This document shows positions 33,944 through 59,346 of a stretch of 64,000 nucleotides of DNA, one piece after another. The notes beneath the pieces are model-generated. The model was not told where the DNA came from. It saw nothing but the letters and a program-made list of their open reading frames with translations, and made no database searches. The position numbers and the translations under genes were made by a program. The number at the start of each line of letters is the position of its first letter. The first letter of the stretch is position 1. Source of the DNA: Methanothermococcus sp. Ax23 (GTDB lineage: Archaea; AGJL01; Methanococci; Methanococcales; Methanococcaceae); assembly GCF_049075655.1 (NCBI RefSeq), contig NZ_CP157522.1:608001-672000 (forward strand), given 5' to 3'.

Positions 33944-34192
33944 TATGGGCATGAGGACTATAGCCCGCCTTCTGTAATTTCGGCGACATTCAGCTAAGCG
34001 CTAAATGCTTGCACCCGTGCAGAATGGCCTCGTTTCACCGGCTCCTTGAAACTCCTCAATTTTCATATCATAGTCATCTGTTTCAAGGCCGTGTCGTTTC
34101 TATACACCATTCAATCCTTCTCAGGATATTATGCACATAATGGGTGGGCGGAGCTTCCTCCTAAATGGGAGTCGCCAGTCCTCTTGCCCATA
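33944..34192 (-). ncRNA. rnpB: RNase P RNA (archaeal type M)
   Basis: P1 ends TATGGGCAAGAGGACT/AGTCCTCATGCCCATA; conserved GAGGAAGCTCCGCCC and ACAGAAGGCGGGCTATA (P4). Confidence 0.93.
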
Positions 34193-34252
34193 GTTAATAT
34201 ATTGTAAAATTACATTACACTCGAAAACTCGAAACTATATTGGATAAAAAAA

Positions 34253-34371
34253 TGGCTAACGGCGTCACCCTGTTCCCACCGAAAGGCAGTACTTAGGGTA
34301 TCGCTGGAGGGCTTAATTTCCGAGATCGGAACGGGATCGGATGTGGCACCTCCGCTATGACCGTTATGCCA
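34253..34371 (-). rRNA. rrf: 5S rRNA
   Basis: ACGGTCATAGCGG...CCGATCCCGTTCCGATCTCGGAAATTAAGC...; complementary ends. Confidence 0.95.
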
Positions 34372-42060: not shown

Positions 42061-44085
42061 ATGGATGAAAAAAAGATAGAGCAGTTAAAACCATATATTA
42101 CCAACTATATAAGAAACTTCCACAGTGATGACATTATATCAGAAAAGGAAAGGGTAGTAATAGACTTGGAGAAATTATATAATTATGGAATAGTGGATTT
42201 TATAGAATATATTTATGAAAATCCATACGATGGATTAAAGATTTTAGAAGATGCATACGTGGAAGCATACTACGCACTAAAAAATGAAAATCCAAACTGC
42301 TCCATCACAATAAAAAACATACCCGAAGTATTCAAAAAATACAACAACAAAACATTAACAATTAAGGATATTAAAAGCAGTACATTGGGAAAACTTATAG
42401 AATTTGAAGGAATTATTGTATTAGCAACTAAAATAAAATCAATATTAAAAAAAGCAGTATATGTATGCAATAATTGTGGAAATAGGGTTGTTGTAAATAT
42501 CGATAATCCCTATGAATATAATCCAGAGTCTAAATCATGCACCAATGAAAAATGTAATGGAATATTACAGATAGTAGAAAACGAATCGGAGTATATTGAC
42601 TTCCAGGAATTAAAAGTTCAACAACCGCTGGATTTAATGGATGACCCAGAGGAACCTCCAAAATATATATCTGTATTTTTAGAAAATTCGCCGGGCATAT
42701 TCTGCGGAAGGGTAAAAATAATAGGAATACCCATCAAATACCAAAGTAGTAAAAAACTACCAATATATGACATATACATAAGAGGGCTAAATTGCGAAAT
42801 AATAGAAAATAAATTAGAAAGTGAGCTCACCGAAGATGACATTGAAAAAATAGAAAAAGTTGCCAAACACCCAAAAGTGCTGGATATATTATCAAATGAA
42901 CTCATCCCAGAAATAAAAGGATATGAAACTATAAAGAAGGCGATATTTTTACAGCAGATAAAAGGAGTTAAAAAAGGGAATAAAAGAGCCGACAGCCACA
43001 TACTTTTAATTACCGACCCGGGGATTGGAAAAAGTGTTATGCTCAGAAAAATAGCGGAGCTCCCGGGAAACCTATATGGTTCTGTAACCACGGCATCAGG
43101 AGTTGGTTTAACCGCAGCAGTTGTTAGGGAAAAAACTGAAATTGGGGATGATACGTGGGTTATAAAACCAGGTTTGTTGGTTAAAGCAAACAAGGGGACC
43201 GCATGTATTGACGAGCTAACTGTTAATAAGGACCTTCAAAGTTTTGTTTTAGAGGCTATGGAAAGCCAAACAATTCACATTAATAAAGGGGGTATAAATA
43301 CAAAGCTTCCAGCAGAGTGTGCAATTCTTGCTGCATGCAACCCAAGATGGGGAAAATTTGACCCCAATGTTTCAATACCTGAACAGATAAACATACCTGC
43401 CCCTATGTTAAGTAGATTTGATATAATATTTCCAATAAAGGATGAAGTAGATAGGGCAAAGGACAAAGACATAGCAAAACATATTATCAATATCCATAGA
43501 AAATATTTGAAGAAGGACGAAGGAGACATAAAAGTCGATAAAGAGACTAAAATTAATGGTGTTGAAATCGACGATGAATTTATCATAAAATATATATTAT
43601 ATGCTAGACAGAAAAAGCCAATTATATCAAAAAATGCAGAGGATATTTTAGTAGAATACTACACAAACATGAGGAAGAGCTCTATACAAATAACCGCAAG
43701 GCAGCTTGAAGCTGCGATTCGACTTGCTGAAGCTCATGCAAAGGTGAAATTAAAGGATGTTGTGGAAGAAGAGGATGCAGAAGAGGCAATAAATATAATA
43801 ATGGAATCACTAAAAGAGATAGCCTATGATCCAGAAACTGGTATGATTGATATAGGGAAGATTACGGGAGAATCAAACAAGGATAAAAATAAAATGAAGG
43901 AGATATACACAATTATTAAAAAACTCTCAGAAAAGAACAACGAGGGATTGGTGTTATTCGAAGATATATTGGAAGAAACTAAAAAGAAGGGAATGGATGA
44001 AGAAGAAACCGAGAACATCATTAAAAAATTATTAAAGAGGGGGGACATCGACGAACCAAGGAATGGAAAATACCGAATTATATAA
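42061..44085 (+). CDS. mcm: MCM replicative helicase (no intein)
   Basis: Zn finger CNNC...C...C, DFQE, ITDPGIGKS, GVGLTAAV, CIDE, MLSRFD, TARQLE, C-terminal wH. Confidence 0.96.
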   Translation: MDEKKIEQLKPYITNYIRNFHSDDIISEKERVVIDLEKLYNYGIVDFIEYIYENPYDGLKILEDAYVEAYYALKNENPNCSITIKNIPEVFKKYNNKTLTIKDIKSSTLGKLIEFEGIIVLATKIKSILKKAVYVCNNCGNRVVVNIDNPYEYNPESKSCTNEKCNGILQIVENESEYIDFQELKVQQPLDLMDDPEEPPKYISVFLENSPGIFCGRVKIIGIPIKYQSSKKLPIYDIYIRGLNCEIIENKLESELTEDDIEKIEKVAKHPKVLDILSNELIPEIKGYETIKKAIFLQQIKGVKKGNKRADSHILLITDPGIGKSVMLRKIAELPGNLYGSVTTASGVGLTAAVVREKTEIGDDTWVIKPGLLVKANKGTACIDELTVNKDLQSFVLEAMESQTIHINKGGINTKLPAECAILAACNPRWGKFDPNVSIPEQINIPAPMLSRFDIIFPIKDEVDRAKDKDIAKHIINIHRKYLKKDEGDIKVDKETKINGVEIDDEFIIKYILYARQKKPIISKNAEDILVEYYTNMRKSSIQITARQLEAAIRLAEAHAKVKLKDVVEEEDAEEAINIIMESLKEIAYDPETGMIDIGKITGESNKDKNKMKEIYTIIKKLSEKNNEGLVLFEDILEETKKKGMDEEETENIIKKLLKRGDIDEPRNGKYRII

Positions 44086-44191
44086 TATCAAAAACCTTCA
44101 ACATTATCAGCTTCATCGAATATAATGGGCATATTATAATTAAATCCATTCGATAAAAAAATATTAATGTAAAAAGAATACTTGTGATACA

Positions 44192-45247
44192 ATGAACATA
44201 ATATATCAGACCGCATCAGATTTTTTAACAAATGATATATGGGTCATGCCAACAGATAGGAAAAATATACTTGAATTAGATGAAAGCGGAGAAATTAAAA
44301 TATTTAACAATATTCCAGTTTTAAGGGTGCTTGCAACACCCTCTTTAAAAAAAACAATTAGTAGGTTAGTTTATACCATAAAAGATAAAATGGTTTTATT
44401 TAAAAATAAAGACGAAAATATTAATTTAAATATATTTAAATACTTGGACAAAATGTACTTCAAAACCCCAAATAAAAATTATTATAGGACAAAAAAAGCA
44501 TGGTATAGATTCATTGGCGATTTATTTGAAGACATCAACAATTGGAATTTTAAAAAGGTCATTACTAAAACCATAATACTACTTAAAATATTAAAGCCCG
44601 TGTTAGTATTTGATGTCCATAATGTTTCAAAATGGAACCATATAGAAGGTTTTAAAAAATTTATAAACACACTTCATAAACATAACATCAGCATCGTAAT
44701 AAGATGCCCAGTTGAATCCATAAACCACATAAAAAAAACATTTGAAAACTCAAAAATAAACAATATTGCCGTGATGAAGTACTATGGAAAACTAAAAGGA
44801 TATAATATCTCAACAAAAGTAGCAGAATATTTATTAAAAATATCCAATGGGAATATAAACATACTAAAATTAATATTGCCGCATTCAAAACGGGATTTAA
44901 AGACATTGCGAGATTTAAAAATACCATGGTTAAAAATAATTCCATTGATTGTTCCAAAAAAATATAAACGCATAATGGAAATAGTATGCAGCATGAAAAA
45001 ATTCAGCATAAGTAATATTGAAAAATACATCAATTTAAAAATACCTACAATATATGCATATTTAAGTGATTTAGTTGATATGAAACTGCTAAAAAAGAGA
45101 AGAATTGGAAGAAATTTAATATACAAATTAAACCTAAATAAAGATGAGTTATTCTATTTTATTAACAATATACCTTATAAAGACTTACATTACAGTGTTT
45201 TTTTAGACTCTCAGTCAATACATAATGGATTTCGGCTTTTCGGATAG
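44192..45247 (+). CDS. Hypothetical protein: degenerate AAA+-like core with C-terminal winged helix
   Basis: VLVFD (Walker-B-like), LLKISNGNI (lid-like), C-terminal IPTIYAYLSDLVDMKLL...GRNLIYKL; no Walker A. Confidence 0.6.
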   Translation: MNIIYQTASDFLTNDIWVMPTDRKNILELDESGEIKIFNNIPVLRVLATPSLKKTISRLVYTIKDKMVLFKNKDENINLNIFKYLDKMYFKTPNKNYYRTKKAWYRFIGDLFEDINNWNFKKVITKTIILLKILKPVLVFDVHNVSKWNHIEGFKKFINTLHKHNISIVIRCPVESINHIKKTFENSKINNIAVMKYYGKLKGYNISTKVAEYLLKISNGNINILKLILPHSKRDLKTLRDLKIPWLKIIPLIVPKKYKRIMEIVCSMKKFSISNIEKYINLKIPTIYAYLSDLVDMKLLKKRRIGRNLIYKLNLNKDELFYFINNIPYKDLHYSVFLDSQSIHNGFRLFG

Positions 45248-45762
45248 TATGATATTTTATTGAATAACACATAATCATGGTTTTTTATTATCAAATATGT
45301 TTTGTGTATGGTTATGACACACTTCTATTTTTACCATAAGGTTTTAAAATAATACTATACGAAATGAGAATATAAATGATTTTCTTAAAAGTGTTTCGGG
45401 TTTTCGAACTTCATGTATGTATAGGAAATAAAAATGTATGTCCAAAAACAAAAAAATAAAATTATTCCAGACGTTTTATATTGTATTATTTTTTTGCACT
45501 TAATATGTATATAATCAAAAAAAAATGAATTATACATTATAATATTACATATAACATTACATTATACATATAACTAAATAAATAAAACAAAATATAAATA
45601 AAATCAGATTAAAAAACCGTATATTATGTATTAAATTTATATACTAATGTTTAAGTAAAATATAAGCATTTTCCATTGAATAATTTTCTACGAATAATTG
45701 AAAATCATAATTTTTTTGGAGATTTTCCAGGGCCATACATACATCATGCTCGAAAACCCGAA
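45230..45762. repeat. TTCGGGTTTTCGA-type motifs in inverted arrangement around an AT-rich spacer between convergent genes
   Basis: TTTCGGCTTTTCGG at 45230, TTTCGGGTTTTCGA at 45394, reverse copy TCGAAAACCCGAA at 45750; related copy at 46874. Confidence 0.65.
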
Positions 45763-45768
45763 TTACTA

Positions 45769-46290
45769 TTATTTTTGATTTTCATAATACTTTTTCAGAT
45801 AGTTAATATGCCTACAATCCGAGGATTGACATGCTACACACCACCAGGTGCCTGTTTTTGATTTAAAAACCGTTGATATCTCCTCTCCATTTTCATCATA
45901 GAATTTAAATGAGATTCCACCAAATTCATCGGTGAATTTCCTTATTTCAAAACCTATTCTATTTACTGGATAATACTTGGTTCTAAATTTCTTTTTCGAT
46001 AGACTTTCGAAAAGACCCGAAAAACTAAGGTCAAATATTTCAGGGCATACTCTCTTTAAAATTGCAATTCCTTTTGTAGTTAATGAGTATAATACTTTAT
46101 GACCGTTTCTATCTCTTTTTGTTAAGTTTAAAGCAGTGCAAAGCCTTAAAAATTGTGATGGAATGCCCTTAGAGATTTTTAGGTTTTCGGTTATTTGCTG
46201 GGGATAGGCTGTGCCACGAATCAACACATAATGTAAAATTAATTTCCTTATTGGAGTAGATACTGTTTTATTTATGATATAATCCATCAT
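45769..46290 (-). CDS. Winged-helix DNA-binding protein with C-terminal CxxC-x4-CxH (SWIM-like) zinc finger
   Basis: YPQQITENLKISKG...RNGHKVLYSLT wHTH; WWCVACQSSDCRH. Confidence 0.75.
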   Translation of the reverse strand: MMDYIINKTVSTPIRKLILHYVLIRGTAYPQQITENLKISKGIPSQFLRLCTALNLTKRDRNGHKVLYSLTTKGIAILKRVCPEIFDLSFSGLFESLSKKKFRTKYYPVNRIGFEIRKFTDEFGGISFKFYDENGEEISTVFKSKTGTWWCVACQSSDCRHINYLKKYYENQK

Positions 46291-46977
46291 ACCACCATTT
46301 TTTTATAAATTACGTATTTATAATTGATAATTTGTAATTTAATAAATTGTTTAGTTGTATTTAGTATAATTTATCCTTAGATTCATTTCATGATTTTTTC
46401 ACATTGTGATTTACTATCAAATTCCATACTATATATAATTTTTTGTCAAAGAATATATTTATAATTCAGTTTTTATCGGATGTTCTTATTTTTTACGGGT
46501 AGTGGTTTTGCTATTTTTTATTTAGTTAGATATATTATGTGTAATATTATTTAGCATTATTGATTCATAGTTTTTTTTATTATATATGTTATATTCACAT
46601 TTTTAATTTTCATATATATACTAAAAATTCAATTAAAAAAAACTTTATAATTATAGTGATAGTTTATATATTTTTTAAATTTTTATTAAAGTTATTTTTA
46701 TAGCATTTTTGAGAATGTATTTCAAAGGTTTTTCAATTTTATCATTAGATTCACATTTTAATTTATTTTAAATATTTTATTCATATTTTATTTAAATTAA
46801 TGATTAGAGTTAAATAATCTTATAAATAAATGTATAAATTAATGAATATATACAATAACAAGTAATTTCGAGGTTTCTGGGTTTTCGAATAGATGATGGT
46901 TCAAAATATTAGAAATATCCGAAAAGTATAAAAACAGGTTTTACAGTAGGATGATATACTTTAATATTGGTGGTATT
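46291..46977. other. Candidate replication origin (AT-rich intergenic region with TTAKATTCAY repeats) upstream of a Cdc6-like gene
   Basis: About 690 bp non-coding and extremely AT-rich; TTAGATTCAT 46377, ATTGATTCAT 46559, TTATATTCAC 46589, TTAGATTCAC 46745, TTTTATTCAT 46775; context matches the oriC predicted in silico beside MJ0774 in M. jannaschii. Confidence 0.6.
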
Positions 46978-48207
46978 ATGTTGGACCCTATTGAATTTAT
47001 ACAAAATGCTTCATCAATAACAAAAAAATCAATGAATAGGTTGAAATTAAAGACTAATCCTTTTTCTGAAAAACCAATAAGGGGCAATACCAAGTTTTTT
47101 GTAGGTAGAACCACAGAATTAATGGAAATTGCCGATATATTAGGTGCTGCCCAGTATGGTAGTGTTGCCAATGCCGCCATAGTTGGAACAAAAGGTATTG
47201 GTAAGAGCTCCCTTTTGAATGTTATATATTATGCAGCAAAAAGGCAGAACCACTGGACTGTGGAATTAGAGGCTTCTCAGATTACGCCAAGACAGTTTTT
47301 AATACAGTTAATGCATGGGATTATAAGGGATAATATATTTACTATGGATGGCACCTTATCAACAGATTATTTAGAACACTCTCAAAAGATAATAGATATA
47401 TATCGAAGATTGGATTCATATTCTGATAAAACTCCCGTTCATTATCCAAGGGAGAAAATAGAAAGGGATTTGGATTATTTGTTGAATAATGTAAAAGAAG
47501 ATGGTAAATTATGCATAATTTTAATTGACGAAGCAGACCAATTTGCTAAAAAAGGATGTTTGGGGCTTTTGCAGTTTTTCCACTCATTTTTGTATGAAGA
47601 TGGTATTTTAGCATTTTTTGCAGGTTCCCCAACTCTCATGGAAAATTTAACTAGGGTATCTCCTGCAATGAGGGATAGATTACCTAAAATAATAAATATG
47701 CCTCCGCTATCAAAAGAAGAATCCTATGATTTAATATTAAGGAGATTAAAAGATGCCCAAATTCCAAAGGCAAAAGGTTATGAACCATTCACTGAAAATG
47801 CAGTGGATGTGATTGTTGAAGAATGTGATGGTATTCCAAGGAAAATTATTATGACGTGTTCAGAGGCAATCTCCATAGGATTAAAGAAAGGATTAACTGA
47901 GATAGATGAAGATATTGTTAAAATGGCTATGAAAAAATTAGGAATAAGCGTGGGTCATCAAATCTTGAATCACCTAACCCCTGCTCAATCAAAAATAGTT
48001 AAAGCACTGGCAAGTTTTGGAGGAAAATCAACAGTAACTGAACTTGCAAAAGTTTTAAATAATTCACCTGGGACAGTTGGGACCCATCTATCGGATATAT
48101 ATGAGATGGGATATATTTATAAAGAACGCTCTGGAAATAATGTGTATTATACATTATCTAAGGAATTGAATGAGGTTTTAATAAATAACGATGATGAAGA
48201 TGATTAA
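46978..48207 (+). CDS. AAA+ ATPase with C-terminal winged helix; distant Orc1/Cdc6-like (MJ0774-type)
   Basis: NPF...FVGR, GTKGIGKS, ILIDEAD, DGIPR, C-terminal HTH TVTELAKVL...HLSDI. Confidence 0.8.
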   Translation: MLDPIEFIQNASSITKKSMNRLKLKTNPFSEKPIRGNTKFFVGRTTELMEIADILGAAQYGSVANAAIVGTKGIGKSSLLNVIYYAAKRQNHWTVELEASQITPRQFLIQLMHGIIRDNIFTMDGTLSTDYLEHSQKIIDIYRRLDSYSDKTPVHYPREKIERDLDYLLNNVKEDGKLCIILIDEADQFAKKGCLGLLQFFHSFLYEDGILAFFAGSPTLMENLTRVSPAMRDRLPKIINMPPLSKEESYDLILRRLKDAQIPKAKGYEPFTENAVDVIVEECDGIPRKIIMTCSEAISIGLKKGLTEIDEDIVKMAMKKLGISVGHQILNHLTPAQSKIVKALASFGGKSTVTELAKVLNNSPGTVGTHLSDIYEMGYIYKERSGNNVYYTLSKELNEVLINNDDEDD

Positions 48208-53887: not shown

Positions 53888-56850
53888 TTATAAGATTATA
53901 TTTTTTAGCACATTTTCTGGATTTTCTTGATATTGCCTAATTAAATTCCCTACGCTATTTATGTCCCGTATGTTATTTTTAATGGCATATTTAAGCACTT
54001 CTATTCTATTCAATCTATCCTCTATGAGCTCATCCCGTGATACACCTGCAATATTGCAAACCTGTTCTTCCCACATACATATTCCATCTTTTTTAATTTC
54101 ATCAGATATACCATCATATTTAAAAAGGCTCGTTTTTGAGATATCCTCTCCAGCCCCGCTAATTTCTATAACATTTAATACCCTTCTCACGGTTTTTCTA
54201 TTTCTTTTAATTCGCTGCTGGTTTATAATAAAATCCAGGGATGAAATCATAACTTCTGGAACGTTCATCGGGGGATTCATTAGTCTAATCATTGCCTCAT
54301 CTGCACTATTTGCGTGAAGTGTCCCGGAACAGTTTGAAATGATAAATCCACCATACTTGCCTGCAATGTATGTGTGGTTATCTTCAACTGTTAAATCATA
54401 AATATGTCCATTGTATTCAATTTCTTCAACACTTACAACCTTATCCCAATATATGTCTGAATTTGCTAATATTTTTAAGTTTTCAGCATTTAATATTTCT
54501 GCTATTTTATTTAACTTCGTTCTCGAAGGGTCTCTTACACCTGTTTCATAAGCCCTGATTAAACTTCTGGTTTTTAATCCAAGTTTCTCAGCTAATTCTT
54601 GCTGTGTTAATTTATTATTTAATCGATAATATTTTATCAATTTTCCGATATTTGGTATAATATCTAGGGAATTTTTGGATTTAAGTAGTATGTTATTTAA
54701 CTTTTCATGTTTTGTATGGTGTGTAAATCCGATATGTTTCCAGTATTTCCATATGTTATCATATCCACCAATGGTTATTTTATAATATGGATTTATATTT
54801 CCTTTTCCATCCTTTTCTTGAGCTGAAACATGGGATATAATCCCAAATCTTAGCAATAAATATGGAAGGGCAATTGCAAGATTTTTGTTTGATGTTACAA
54901 ATTCAATACGCCTTGTAGTTTCATTTATATGGCCATCAGAATCAAATAATCCTTGTATAAATTCTGATAAATCATCGTTTGATAACAATACCTCTATTGG
55001 AATACTAAATGATTTTGTTTTATTTCCAATTGGGATATATTTTGAAAGTTTACTGACTGATTCTACCCCATACACTTTGGCTTTTGTGTGGTTGTTATAT
55101 TTTAAACAAACAACATCTCCATAATCACTCATTTCACTTGAAACTTTTTCAATTACATCGCTATTTTGATTTATAAAGTCAATACAATATTTGCTTAAAT
55201 GATCATCGCCCAATAAAGCACCAATTAAATATGGATTTTCAATATATTTACCATCTTTGGTTTTCAATTCTCGTGGAAGTGCAATGTAATCATTAATTTT
55301 AACCATTTCCGCATTTATCTCAAATATTTTATTATTTAATATATACATAGGATGGTCATGAGTAAGAATTATTTCCTTACCGCTTTTTGTTTTTATTTTT
55401 ATCATCTTTCCAGAGTATTCTTTTCTCCAAACTCTTGATATTAATTTATCTTCAATTTTTAGGGTGCTTTTGTTAAAACTTTTAATAAATATATTCTCAT
55501 TAGATACGTCAATCCATTCAAATCCATTACTTTCTTTTACTTTCATTAAATCATATTTCTCAAAAAATTTATCAACAAATTCTCCTATGTTTATGATGTG
55601 TCCGTTAGATAAATAAATGGGTTCATCTTCCACTAATGCACCATCATGACCTGTATTCATAGCAACTAAAAGAGAATGGGCTTCCTCACCTCTAACCTCC
55701 CCTACAAATATTCTATCTGGTCTCATCCTTAAAGCATTTTTAATTAAATCATCCATTGTGACTTCATACTCTGGAATTCCAGGTCTTGGAGGTCTTGTAA
55801 TCATTTTTATTACATGCTCATGAGGGATTTGCAATTCGGGAGTGTCCTCAATAGTTACAATCCTGTCGGAATACATGGAAAACATTGAAATAACATTAAG
55901 AGTTGTGGTTTTCCCTGAACCAGTTCCTCCCACAATCAGCGTATTTGCAGGTTTTGCTCCGAAGTATCCTTCAACGGCCTGCCATATGAATGCTGCAAGT
56001 TCAAGGTCAAAAGTTTTGTATTTAATTAAATCAACAACCGTCAGCGGGTCAGCTGAAAATTTACGAATGGTTAGGGTGCTGCCATTCAATGTAACATCCT
56101 GTGTTGTGGCATTGACCCTACTACCATCGGGTAAAAACGCATCTAACATCGGTGTCCTGGAGTCTATCGTTCTTCCAGCAAGTAGGGCAATATTTTCAAT
56201 AATTCTAGTTAATTCACTGTTATTAATTACAATATTTGTCTTACACATTTGGTATTTTCTATGGAATACAAAAGTGGGTCGGTTAATTCCATTTACCATG
56301 ATTTCTTCTAGATTATCATCATGTAATGGAACTTCTAAGAATCCAAGTTTTCCTATTATTAAATAAAAATATTTAGCTAAATTTTGAATTTCAATATTTT
56401 TGAGATTCAGGCCATTCTTTTCAGAATAATTTAGTAAATACCCTTGGATTTCTTCAATTTTTTGAAAGCCGCCTTCGGAGATATCAGATTTTATCTCAGA
56501 TATATTTTCCTCAGAAAGCTTGGAAAGCGCATCGATTATCTGGCTAACCTCAGGAATGTTATAATATATTCGCCCATCCTTTTTTTCTATAAGGATATTG
56601 AACACAACGCCATCGATTTTTAAAAAATAATTGTCAATTACATTTGGAGATATGATTTTAATATTTTGAATATTTTGATGAGTGGATTTATCGTTGAAGG
56701 GGAATTTTCGAGTTTCACTACTTGGAGCAAGACCTCTAAGAGGTGCACTAGGCTCAGTTTTTACTGTCTCTTTTTCTAGTTTTTCAGTTTTTTTTTAGGT
56801 TCTGGAGTAGGTTTAATATCTTTGTTTTTAATTCTATCAAAAAGACCCAT
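53888..56850 (-). CDS. Type IV pilus assembly ATPase (VirB11/KlbA-like) with intein; frameshifted at an A9 run (56788-56796)
   Basis: GGTGSGKTT, TIED, LRMRPDRIFVGEVRG, MNTGHDG|CSGTLHA; upstream ATG at 56850 (MGLFDRIK, GGGGCG RBS) is one base out of frame with the 53888-56605 ORF. Confidence 0.88.
54332..55639 (-). mobile_element. KlbA-type class 2 intein (436 aa, Ala1) with LAGLIDADG endonuclease and XRE-family HTH
   Basis: Starts ALVEDEPI after GHDG; block B LTHDHP; GALLGDD and QGLFDSDG; ends IISN before CSGTLH. Confidence 0.92.
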
Positions 56851-56877: not shown

Positions 56878-59346
56878 TTATAAGGTTACATCAATGTCCA
56901 AATGCTCTGTTAATTCTTTGTATCTATTTCTAATAGTTACCTCTGTAACGCCTGCAACATCTGCAACTTCTCTCTGGGTTCTTCTAGTGCCATGCAGAAC
57001 ACTTGCAATATATATTGCAGCAGCTGCAACTCCTGTTGGTCCCCTACCACTTGTTAAACCTTTTTCATTGGCTTTTTGAAGTATTGCAATGGCTTTTGAT
57101 TCTACCTCCCCAGGTAATTTAAGTTCTGATGCAAATCTTGGCACATAATCTATTGGATTTGTTGGAGCAAGCCTTATTTTCAATTCTCTTGAAATAAATC
57201 TGTATGTTCTTCCGATTTCTTTTCTATCTACTCTGGATATTTCTGCAATTTCGTCAAGGGTTCTTGGAACTTTACATCTTCTACATGCGGCATACAGAGC
57301 TGCGGCAGCCACCCCCTCAATACTTCTACCTCTGATTAATCCTTTTTCTACGGCACCCCTATATAGAACTGCGGCGTTTTCCCTAACATTTCTTGGGAGA
57401 CCTAATTTTGAAGCTATTCTATCCAATTCAGAGAGAGCAAATGCTAAGTTTCTTTCGGAAGCATCTGAAACCCTTATTCTTCTTTGCCATTTTCTTAATC
57501 TATATAGCTGAGCTCTCCTATCTGCTGAAATATCCTTTCCATAACTATCTTTATTTCTCCAATCTATTACTGTGGATAATCCTTTATCGTGTATGGTGTT
57601 ATGAAGAACAAATGCTCCATAACCAGCAACGAAGTTTTCAGCATTTGGAACTGTTAAATCGTAAGCATACCCATTTGTTGGTTTTGTTTTTTCAATCTTC
57701 TTAATTTTTAAGAATATAAAATCAGAGCTCGCAAGTTTTTCCAATTTCTTATCATTATATTTTTTTGCAATGTTCAATGCAAGAGCTCTACTTATTCTTT
57801 TTCTGTCTCTACATTTCCATTCTTTTTTATACTCAGCAGGTGCAGGAATTAACTCTTCAATAGGCGGTTTTTTATTTTCTTTGCTGTAATTTTCAATATA
57901 TCCTAATTTTACTATATGCTTAGGATTTGTAATTCTTAACATATAGGCATCTGAATCCTTTATATGCTGACCATTTAACTCATGACCTTTGATGAGCTCA
58001 TAGTTATAATTTGAATTTATGCCCAATTGAAGCAATAGCATCATTAAATCATTTATTAATTCCTTTGATGAAGAAACCGCAGTTAATTGAATTGTGCTGT
58101 ATTTTTTGTTTGTATATAAATTTCCATCGCCGTTGAAGTATCCTTTTAAAAACTCTATTTTTAAGTTTTTAGGCAATAAGTAGATAATAGATGGAACTCT
58201 TTTTTCCTTTGCACCAGATTTAATACCCAAGGCTTTAAACAATTCCACAAAGACTTTATTTGTAATTTCGATTTGAACTGCGGATTTGTTGCTGTTTTTA
58301 AGATATAATTTAGGTTTAATTCCAAATTTTTTGAAGAATGAAACAACTTCATCGATATATTCCGTTTCATGTTTTCCAAATGAAAATACCAATCTATTAT
58401 CTGTATAATGTCCTTCGGCAATATAATAACCTAATATTTTAGCAAATGTTTCATCTATCTTTAATTTTGATGGTATTTTTAATCCAGAGCCATACCTAAC
58501 AGTTGCAAACTCTGGAACTTCAATTTTTGAATTTATCACATATTCAACTGGTGCGGATTGTCTCTTTTTCCAACTACTGTTTTCATAAGGATAATTGAAT
58601 TGAATATAGCATCCTTTCAGCAACTTCGATAGGTCTAATTCAATATTATATTCAACATTTGGCAATCTTTTTGCAAGCACTAAATAATCCCCTTCTCTGA
58701 GCTCATCTACTCTGGTTTCTACAACTTCACCATCTTTAAGTGCGAATACGCTGTGGCTTCCAGTGGTTTTTATGTGCTTATTTCCTTCAACAACTATATT
58801 ATACACAGAATTTACAGGATGCCTCGAAACCTCGGATACATTCATATAGCTAAATTTATAATCGCTATCGAATGCTACCACTTCTAAATTTTTATCTTCA
58901 ATATTGGCGATTTCCAAAATGCCCTCTTTTCTAATATTTTTCGAGTTTTCGATATATCTGTCAATTAACTCCCCAATTTTTACAATTTTTACATTTCCAT
59001 TTTCTTTAATTATTATCGGCTCGTTGTAATCTACACTATATGTCATCGGAGCTCCGACCCTACTTCTTTTAACTCTCTGCTCATGGTCAAATGCTCTCCA
59101 TTCAGGACCTACATCAAATAAATTCTGCTGTAAAACACATCCACAATCTGCACAGACGATTTCAGCCCTTTCGTAATCTTTAATAACATTTTTGCTTCCA
59201 CAGATTGGGCAAACTAACTCTTCTTCTTTTTCAATAATAACATTTTTAGAGGAATCTTCATTAATTGGTGGTCTTTCCATTATTTTTTTTTCTTCTTTTT
59301 TTGTTTCTTCGCTATTTTTTTGTTTTGACACTAATTTCATTTCCAT
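56878..59346 (-). CDS. tfb: Transcription initiation factor IIB, containing one intein
   Basis: CPICG...CADCG Zn ribbon, GPEWRAF, cyclin repeats RGRSIE and [16 protein letters not shown]. Confidence 0.97.
57598..59037 (-). mobile_element. Intein in TFB (480 aa, Ser1, His-Asn end, Thr+1) with LAGLIDADG endonuclease
   Basis: GAPMTY|SVDYNEP; TTGSHS; [16 protein letters not shown]; YDLTV...VLHN|TIHDKGL. Confidence 0.93.

Follow-up and report, generated by a model that had tools for sequence, protein, structure and literature searches.

A conserved two-spacer locus around the Mc-pRIP ATPase gene as a candidate chromosomal origin module of the Methanococcales

Where does the chromosome of the Methanococcales begin to replicate, and which proteins take part? 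Replication initiation in this order has been termed 'an intriguing unknown' (PMC3984812). The question is raised by a locus within a stretch of 64,000 nt (the window) of the 1.66-Mb genome of Methanothermococcus sp. Ax23 (NZ_CP157522.1:608,001-672,000), where, as read from the open reading frame (ORF) map and family scans, the gene of an MCM helicase (mcm) is followed by a gene that we call B on the plus strand, a spacer S1, a gene C on the minus strand, a second spacer S2 and a gene D on the plus strand. The reading that we favour, with reservations, is that the locus, B and C included, is a chromosomal origin module of the Methanococcales; its core, an origin served by D, we hold to be likely, and the chances that B and C take part directly are even or slightly better.

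One part of this locus is on record. The MJ0774 family was reportedly put forward as the Methanococcales initiator, with an oriC adjacent to its gene, by Zhang and Zhang in 2004 and later through Ori-Finder-Arch. MJ0774 has been described as a distant Cdc6 homologue, and in 11-14 Methanococcales genomes an oriC was predicted next to the orthologue (PMC3531139, DoriC 5.0; PMC4009838, a Z-curve review of 2014). The initial annotation of the window mentions a computational oriC prediction at MJ0774-MJ0783. A preprint describes Mc-pRIP as HTH_5, AAA+ and Cdc6-like lid from AF3 models, and draws the M. jannaschii oriC as a DNA unwinding element (DUE) between two origin recognition boxes (ORB), ORB(-)/DUE/ORB(+) (bioRxiv 10.64898/2026.08.15.744077). 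D answers to this description: it is an HTH_5 plus AAA+ protein of Methanococcales, adjoins AT-rich repeat DNA and lies upstream of mptA. D is Mc-pRIP and not new, and the adjacent oriC is likewise in print. Elsewhere Orc1/Cdc6 is still scored as absent from the Methanococcales (PMC3914693; PMC3984812), or is termed 'highly divergent' there (PMC5333045). The available parts of the published Mc-pRIP accounts, which name the ATPase and the adjacent intergenic oriC only, mention neither B and C nor the two-spacer layout, the fixed distance between boxes described below or relatives devoid of the module, and nothing relevant to B and C came up in the literature under MJ0772/MJ0773 or MMP0031-0033. 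B and C are undescribed companion proteins, conserved beside Mc-pRIP.

Across the 40 genomes searched (the scopes 'order' and 'phylum' being the same set) D is present in 31, the other 30 copies at 70-98% identity, with a mean column identity of 78% in the orthologue alignment and with invariant Walker A (GTKGIGKSS) and Walker B (LIDEADQF) motifs in 28 sequences. The Cdc6 winged-helix and lid models of Pfam were not among the matches of D in a Pfam scan. A canonical Orc1/Cdc6 (TIGR02928 at E<=1e-30) was found in none of the 40 genomes, the control matching Haloferax, Sulfolobus and Methanosarcina; the lack of typical Orc1/Cdc6-ORB origins in the order had been taken as established in the initial annotation. 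The true start of D is probably ATG 46978, because the orthologue alignment opens at DPIEF; GGTGGT lies just 5' of this codon. The D frames of G008 and G003 carry one TAA within the match, probably in a non-conserved N-terminal extension.

The arrangement of S1 is that of an archaeal oriC, with inverted boxes, an AT-rich stretch and an initiator gene alongside. S1 contains an inverted repeat of 37 nt (84% complementary), and a 32-bp box of consensus TTTCGAGTTTTCGAGTTGCATGTATGTATATG occurs as both arms in all 29 B-C loci. The box is built of tandem TTTTCGA heptads followed by GCATGTATGTATA, and can be divided into two parts, the heptads and the GCATGTATG part. The distance between the arms has a median of 312 bp and stays within 296-315 bp in 24 of the 29 loci, the DNA between them having a GC content of 0.11-0.24; among the five outliers are G020, whose 353 bp stem from a plus arm mispicked by the script, and G021 with 577 bp. 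In 21 loci the plus arm begins 104-159 bp past the stop codon of B, in the other eight at 67-69 (three loci), 92, 101, 125, 126 and 199 bp, and the minus arm is 12-16 bp from the stop codon of C in 24 loci and 25-87 bp from it in five. Variants private to a genome are common to both of its arms. The 10-mer GGGTTTTCGA has four copies in the whole genome, three of them within 1.5 kb of the locus (rough chance ~1e-5), and the 15-nt core pattern TTTCGRRTTTTCGAR is matched 105 times, in 31 of the 40 genomes and in many cases at the locus, against 4 times for the reversed control. Since S1 sits between two convergent 3' ends, no promoter accounts for its length and conservation. Several genomes have in addition an inner inverted TATCACA pair in S1. 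The conserved C-terminus of B (FRxFG; in the other family FEFS or FEFSK) is specified by the weak box copy at its stop codon, where the DNA element rather than the peptide may be what is conserved. Away from the locus, a further good copy of the box lies at 34220-34234 on the minus strand, between the 5S rRNA (34254-34368) and the RNase P RNA (33949-34187), at the end of the rRNA operon 11 kb upstream; core matches ~11 kb upstream occur also in G027, G026 and G037.

S2 carries another class of boxes. Same-strand GATTCA(C)/TTCACAA boxes recur in both families at ~90, 275, 305, 460 and 490 bp from the start of C, and the k-mer TGAATCAA is present in 18 of 27 S2 spacers, with 48 copies. Towards D, TTTCGA-type copies stand in the final 40-115 bp of S2 in 9 of 11 mapped genomes (none on the plus strand in G026 and G022), and the arrangement TTCGAAA-n-TATAAAAAA before D recurs in relatives; judged from the sequence, the CCGAAAAGTATAAAAAC region is likely the promoter of D.

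The order B(+), S1, C(-), S2, D(+) is found in every readable locus of both Methanococcales families, with S1 of 456-756 bp (mostly 515-537 bp) and S2 of 601-767 bp. Two genomes have D far from the rest, ~445 kb off in G003 and ~190 kb in G004, with neither box nor AT-rich DNA upstream of it, and B, S1, C and the boxed S2 remain together; the split fits a cis-acting DNA element with D working in trans. The link with mcm is a family trait. Among the 15 module-bearing genomes of the family of strain Ax23, an orthologous mcm lies at most ~125 bp upstream of B in 13, and of the other two one has it 1.4 kb away and one is cut by contig ends; the linkage, whose confinement to a single genome the initial annotation would have counted against its proposal, is not peculiar to this genome. 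The synteny of the mptA-tfe block reaches into the other family as well.

MCM orthologues are 59-98% identical across the order. In a maximum-likelihood tree of 26 MCMs picked from 16 genomes, the MCMs linked to the locus and the best orthologues from the other family make up a clade I (support 100/98), its branches following the genome groups, and a separate, slowly evolving clade II is formed by other MCMs. An MCM of M. maripaludis, MMP0030, is essential (PMC3984812) and may be the counterpart of the locus-linked MCM.

A natural counterpart is offered by relatives devoid of the module. Eight genomes of the same genus (G025, G028-G032, G035 and G036; loci L042, L043, L080-L084, L094 and L095) lack B, C, D and the box pattern, their completeness being 99, 99, 99, 96, 86, 81, 64 and 54%, with two of the 99% genomes in 1 and 5 contigs, and a profile search with D gave no match in the five of them in which it was made. 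These genomes are close kin, since MptA is 83-84% identical to that of strain Ax23 in all five genomes searched, four of them module-less and one module-bearing; mptA stands in a different context in the two module-less genomes viewed (G025 and G032). The eight also lack a conserved clade-I MCM. In the six of them sampled in the tree, the conserved MCMs form a clade of their own (support 100/100), whose sister group consists of the clade-II MCMs from strain Ax23 and the two genomes nearest to it. G036 has a second, long-branch MCM, grouping with G027_b beside clade I. This loss of the module together with one MCM clade argues that it is tied to replication rather than to ordinary regulation. 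Weak TIGR02928 matches in the module-less genomes were considered as Cdc6 candidates and rejected, being Mg-chelatase/MoxR-type ATPases.

What kind of protein is B? It is present in 30 of the 40 genomes at 39-85% identity, a match in G033 that covers only the winged helix of D not being counted, and the orthologue of G009 has an in-frame TAG. A scan of 1.84 billion representatives returned 12 matches at E<=1e-3, of which the seven at E<=1e-10 are apparently family members, whole or in pieces, and the other five, weaker, cover the winged-helix region only; the family comprises 27 clusters, the named ones all from Methanococcales and labelled hypothetical, HTH or ArsR. Going by these searches, B is restricted to the Methanococcales. 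No Pfam family matches B, NCBIfam yields nothing beyond weak ArsR-type HTH matches at residues 260-317 (E 1.3e-4), and TIGR02928 gives no match, so that sequence profiles do not place B within Orc1/Cdc6. B has no GxxxxGK[ST] motif. The remnant ATPSLKKT stands at residues 48-55 (GSPSLKKT in some relatives), with P50 invariant and K54 kept in at least 90% of sequences, and the Walker B position reads LVFDVH, with no DE; the Walker A and B motifs of Orc1/Cdc6 are absent from both places. Presumably SNGN stands in B where Orc1/Cdc6 proteins carry GDAR.

The AF2 model of B (pLDDT 85.4, pTM 0.77) has an alpha/beta base, a helical lid and a winged helix, and the leading Foldseek matches are human ORC1 and ORC4, fly ORC2 and Cdc6, S. 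solfataricus Orc1 (2qby_A) and A. pernix ORC2, with E values of 2e-4 to 5e-3, followed by Apaf-1 and CED-4. With VIA-align, residues 9-189 superpose on TnsC (Z 10.9, rmsd 2.7, 130 aligned) and MuB (Z 8.8); in a search independent of Foldseek, the only rows to cover residues 1-189 are four TnsC entries (Z 8.7-8.9) and MuB (Z 8.4). For the winged helix, at residues 244-327, TFE/TFIIE are matched with Z about 10. Judged from its model, B has the look of an origin-recognition protein whose ATP site is defunct. The AAA+-like fold without Walker A that the initial annotation had read from the sequence, proposing a fold search as its test, is thereby supported by the model, Foldseek and VIA.

C (30 of the 40 genomes) is composed, as likewise anticipated there, of a winged helix and a Cys/His domain, according to the alignment, the model and a comparison of its profile with the PDB. 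NCBIfam detects a weak ArsR HTH at residues 8-75, and residues 1-93 are of ArsR/SmtB type (CzrA at E 7.8e-6 with the profile; VIA Z 10.1, rmsd 2.5, 85 aligned). In the model (pLDDT 80.1) residues 95-111 are disordered and residues 115-172 form four strands and a helix bearing WC-x2-C-x4-C-x-H, of which W150, C151, C154, C159 and H161 are invariant in 29 sequences. The signature of the SWIM zinc finger is CxCxnCxH. The C-terminus of C does not match it: its motif is CxxCx4CxH, and PF04434 was not among the best 25 of the 37 families matched (29 members, E<=5); the only lead towards SWIM is a weak one, an atlas cluster at 0.86 with SWIM in 13% of its members. Fold searches with the whole model were filled by matches of the winged helix. 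The family has 12 clusters, the named ones all from Methanococcales, to which C is, on this sequence evidence, restricted. Within the C gene, at 46000-46030 of the sense strand, lies a tandem TTTTCGA-type sequence, TTAGTTTTTCGGGTCTTTTCGAAAG, which encodes the conserved LSFSGLFE. Its nucleotides are preserved in the other family and, within this one, in most genomes of two genera, be it as a box in coding DNA or through mere coding constraint.

In the mechanism that we propose, D would be the active initiator, an ATPase of Orc1/Cdc6 type that has diverged strongly and can work in trans, and S1 would be the origin proper, where the inverted 32-bp boxes flank ~310 bp of AT-rich DNA that would melt. 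S2 would combine the divergent promoters of C and D with the direct GATTCA(C) array, and the box copy at the D promoter would provide for autoregulation. B may be an order-specific accessory origin protein that acts like the non-catalytic subunits of the eukaryotic origin recognition complex (ORC), by DNA binding and/or as a partner of D, and C, a winged-helix protein with a Cys3His metal-type domain, would bind one repeat class. In the Methanococcaceae, with a clade-I MCM directly upstream, the helicase would be inherited together with its presumed loader. We infer, in short, the firing of an origin, the assignment of boxes to proteins, contact among B, D and C and the loading of MCM. A more elaborate version appears doubtful to us: a three-part ORC-like machine with D as active AAA+ subunit, B as inert Orc-like subunit, C as winged-helix/zinc adaptor, two repeat classes and the ~312 bp geometry, which loads the clade-I MCM, a sublineage having dropped origin, initiators and that MCM together and replicating with its other MCM, independently of an origin or by an unknown route. 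Within this version, D and B perhaps descend from two ancestral Orc1/Cdc6 paralogues.

The proposed origin module can be set beside several known systems. Like Sulfolobus oriC1 and Pyrococcus oriC (ORB(-)/DUE/ORB(+)), it has inverted boxes around an AT-rich stretch and the gene of an AAA+-lid-winged-helix initiator alongside; the box itself we take to be unrelated in sequence to ORB and mini-ORB. It differs from the Orc1/Cdc6-ORB origins in that D and B fall under the TIGR02928 cut-off, and in having a further spacer with repeats and two additional proteins specific to the order. In ORC and in the S. solfataricus Orc1-1/Orc1-3 heterodimer (2qby) the initiator is assembled from AAA+ subunits of different kinds, some of them catalytically inert, and the modelled B, with its Orc-like domain order, degenerate P-loop and missing Walker B glutamate beside the intact ATPase D, may be a comparable case; a difference is that sequence comparison does not demonstrate homology of B with D or with Orc1/Cdc6. 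By analogy, C with the GATTCA boxes could be likened to the WhiP/Cdt1-type factor of Sulfolobus oriC3, a small winged-helix protein encoded at the origin and having a repeat class of its own, with the difference that WhiP is considered to have two winged helices (bioRxiv 10.64898/2026.08.15.744077) and C one plus the Cys3His domain.

Several results weigh against the locus being a chromosomal origin module with these parts. The extremes of cumulative GC skew and of gene-strand bias fall near 820-830 kb and 170 kb, and the locus, at 653 kb, lies in a broad trough; no switch is seen there, nor in the Z-curve components. Neither skew, the check that the initial annotation had suggested, nor strand bias singles out the locus. 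Z-curve analysis of M. maripaludis S2 was itself inconclusive (PMC3984812). Close relatives have lost the module, which is hence not indispensable within the order. In the other family mcm is adjacent to B in none of the 16 B-bearing genomes, where cofactor and redox genes are the neighbours of B, so that mcm cannot be kept as a defining part of the module. D reaches 22.3 bits (E 5.1e-5) with TIGR02928, short of the cut-off of 181.3. As to B, its Foldseek matches to ORC and Cdc6 are moderate, the E values given above going with TM of only 0.16-0.24; the best VIA scores of its base fall on TnsC and MuB (Z 8.4-10.9), not on Orc proteins; a profile comparison of B with D (hhalign) aligns the winged helices only (probability 38%, E 3e-4) and lends no support to the three-protein complex that the initial annotation proposed; and the profile of B finds only HTH matches in the PDB, at E 0.2-0.4.

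Could the locus be a segregation site, centromere-like, at which C binds the GATTCA(C) array of S2 and B and/or D serve as adaptor or motor? Three to five same-strand boxes at fixed offsets in S2 would suit such a role, AspA, the centromere-binding protein of pNOB8, is matched by the profile of C (E 3e-3) and appears in its fold lists (Foldseek 4rs8_A, E 3.7e-3; VIA 5k5o_A, Z 8.3), and the two functions could sit side by side. In every list of C, however, AspA is outranked by many ordinary ArsR/SmtB repressors, no ParA- or SegA-type Walker ATPase is encoded at the locus, D being an AAA+ protein with initiator-type domain order, and S1, with AT-rich DNA between inverted boxes, shows the classic pattern of an origin (bioRxiv 10.64898/2026.08.15.744077); we regard a segregation locus, an alternative named in the initial annotation, as improbable, if conceivable for C and S2. 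Another explanation would be an ordinary cluster of ArsR-type regulators with the repeats as operators and the AT-rich spacers as promoter regions. In databases the three proteins do carry labels of ArsR, MarR or HTH regulators, or are called hypothetical, a half-box adjoins the TATA-like element 5' of D, and S2 holds two divergent promoters. S1, flanked by two 3' ends, needs no promoter, though, a spacing of ~312 bp fixed across an order is not an operator trait, D keeps its high identity and its invariant ATPase site over two families, and the module was lost along with an MCM, all of which makes a mere regulator cluster quite improbable.

It could also be asked whether the module, rather than being the main chromosomal origin, served the replication of a plasmid or virus that integrated long ago and was then domesticated. 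Many methanococcal mcm copies came by way of mobile elements (PMC5333045; PMC3984812), the eight relatives do without the module, and neither B nor C has a relative outside the order. Against this, the module is single-copy, its synteny with housekeeping genes (mptA, tfe and the nearby rRNA operon) is held in both families, the branching of the clade-I MCMs tracks the genome groups as said, and no integrase or att-like features were noticed, no systematic search for them having been made; an origin of this kind is in our view very unlikely. The chromosomal origin module remains the reading that we prefer, the conserved unit, the inverted box pair and the AT-rich DNA giving the locus the likeness to a replication-initiation module that was ascribed to it at the outset.

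The coordinates of the features are collected in Table 1. All elements described in the initial annotation are found in their places, with 521 bp for the first spacer where 520 had been given, and its 690 bp for the second agree with the 687 bp obtained if D begins at ATG 46978.

Table 1. Genes, spacers and box elements of the candidate origin locus, in positions of the window
Feature	Position	Strand	Remarks
MCM helicase, origin-linked clade I	42061..44085	+	674 aa; Pfam MCM 3.2e-75, MCM_lid 1.3e-25, MCM_OB 1.7e-17
Protein B, degenerate AAA+ base/lid/winged helix (predicted)	44192..45247	+	351 aa; order-restricted
Weak box copy over last codons and stop of B	45226..45254	+	GGATTTCGGCTTTTCGGATAG
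Spacer S1	45248-45768	.	521 bp, GC 0.21
ORB-like box, plus arm	45394..45425	+	TTTCGGGTTTTCGAACTTCATGTATGTATAGG
AT-rich inter-arm stretch, candidate DNA unwinding element	45426..45731	.	306 bp, GC 0.16
ORB-like box, minus arm, adjoining C stop codon	45732..45763	-	inverted partner
Protein C, ArsR/SmtB-type winged helix + linker + CxxCx4CxH domain	45769..46290	-	173 aa
Spacer S2	46291-46950	.	660 bp, GC 0.18; 687 bp with D start at ATG 46978
Three direct GATTCA boxes in S2	46380..46753	+	at 46380, 46562, 46748
Box copy 5' of D	46875..46906	+	exact GGGTTTTCGAA at 46879
Half-box adjoining TATA-like element	46919..46936	+	CCGAAAAGTATAAAAAC, read from sequence
Protein D, Mc-pRIP (MJ0774 family), intact AAA+ with HTH_5 winged helix	46951..48207	+	AAA_16 4.6e-10, ATPase_2 3.9e-8, HTH_5 8e-10

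Within the spacers the GC content falls to 11-19% in 200-bp windows. A scan of the spacers for promoters and terminators of bacterial type gave nothing above shuffled sequences, the models being ill-suited to archaea. In one small metatranscriptome four short pieces map to the 3' end of the MCM gene, the 5' end of B, the 3' end of D and mptA, which is no proof of transcription, and from a DNA run only 2 reads could be placed. On the 3' side of D follow mptA (TIGR00294, 4.4e-132), an ATP-grasp gene, tfe (1.4e-80), an HD protein, two T2SSF genes and a T2SSE pilus ATPase, so that family scans bear out the downstream order proposed in the initial annotation as far as the pilus genes. The T2SSE-type pilus ATPase (53888-56605, minus strand) carries an intein with LAGLIDADG and HTH_3 domains, and the available part of an arCOG paper notes an intein as common to this pilus ATPase family. 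An ORF of 822 aa (56878-59346, minus strand) stands where tfb had been placed, with a size that would fit an intein-bearing gene. The second contig of this genome (C2 of G000, 7732 bp) may be a plasmid; it holds neither a box core nor an MCM match.

For the Methanococcales, these results add to the Mc-pRIP candidate two conserved proteins, a 32-bp box pair at fixed spacing, a second box class and a set of relatives that naturally lack the module. The genetic tractability of M. maripaludis makes the parts of the module testable. The module-less genomes have neither a canonical Orc1/Cdc6 nor any of the module, and, if B is truly an inert Orc-like subunit, the locus would provide an archaeal parallel to the mixture of active and inactive subunits in the eukaryotic ORC.

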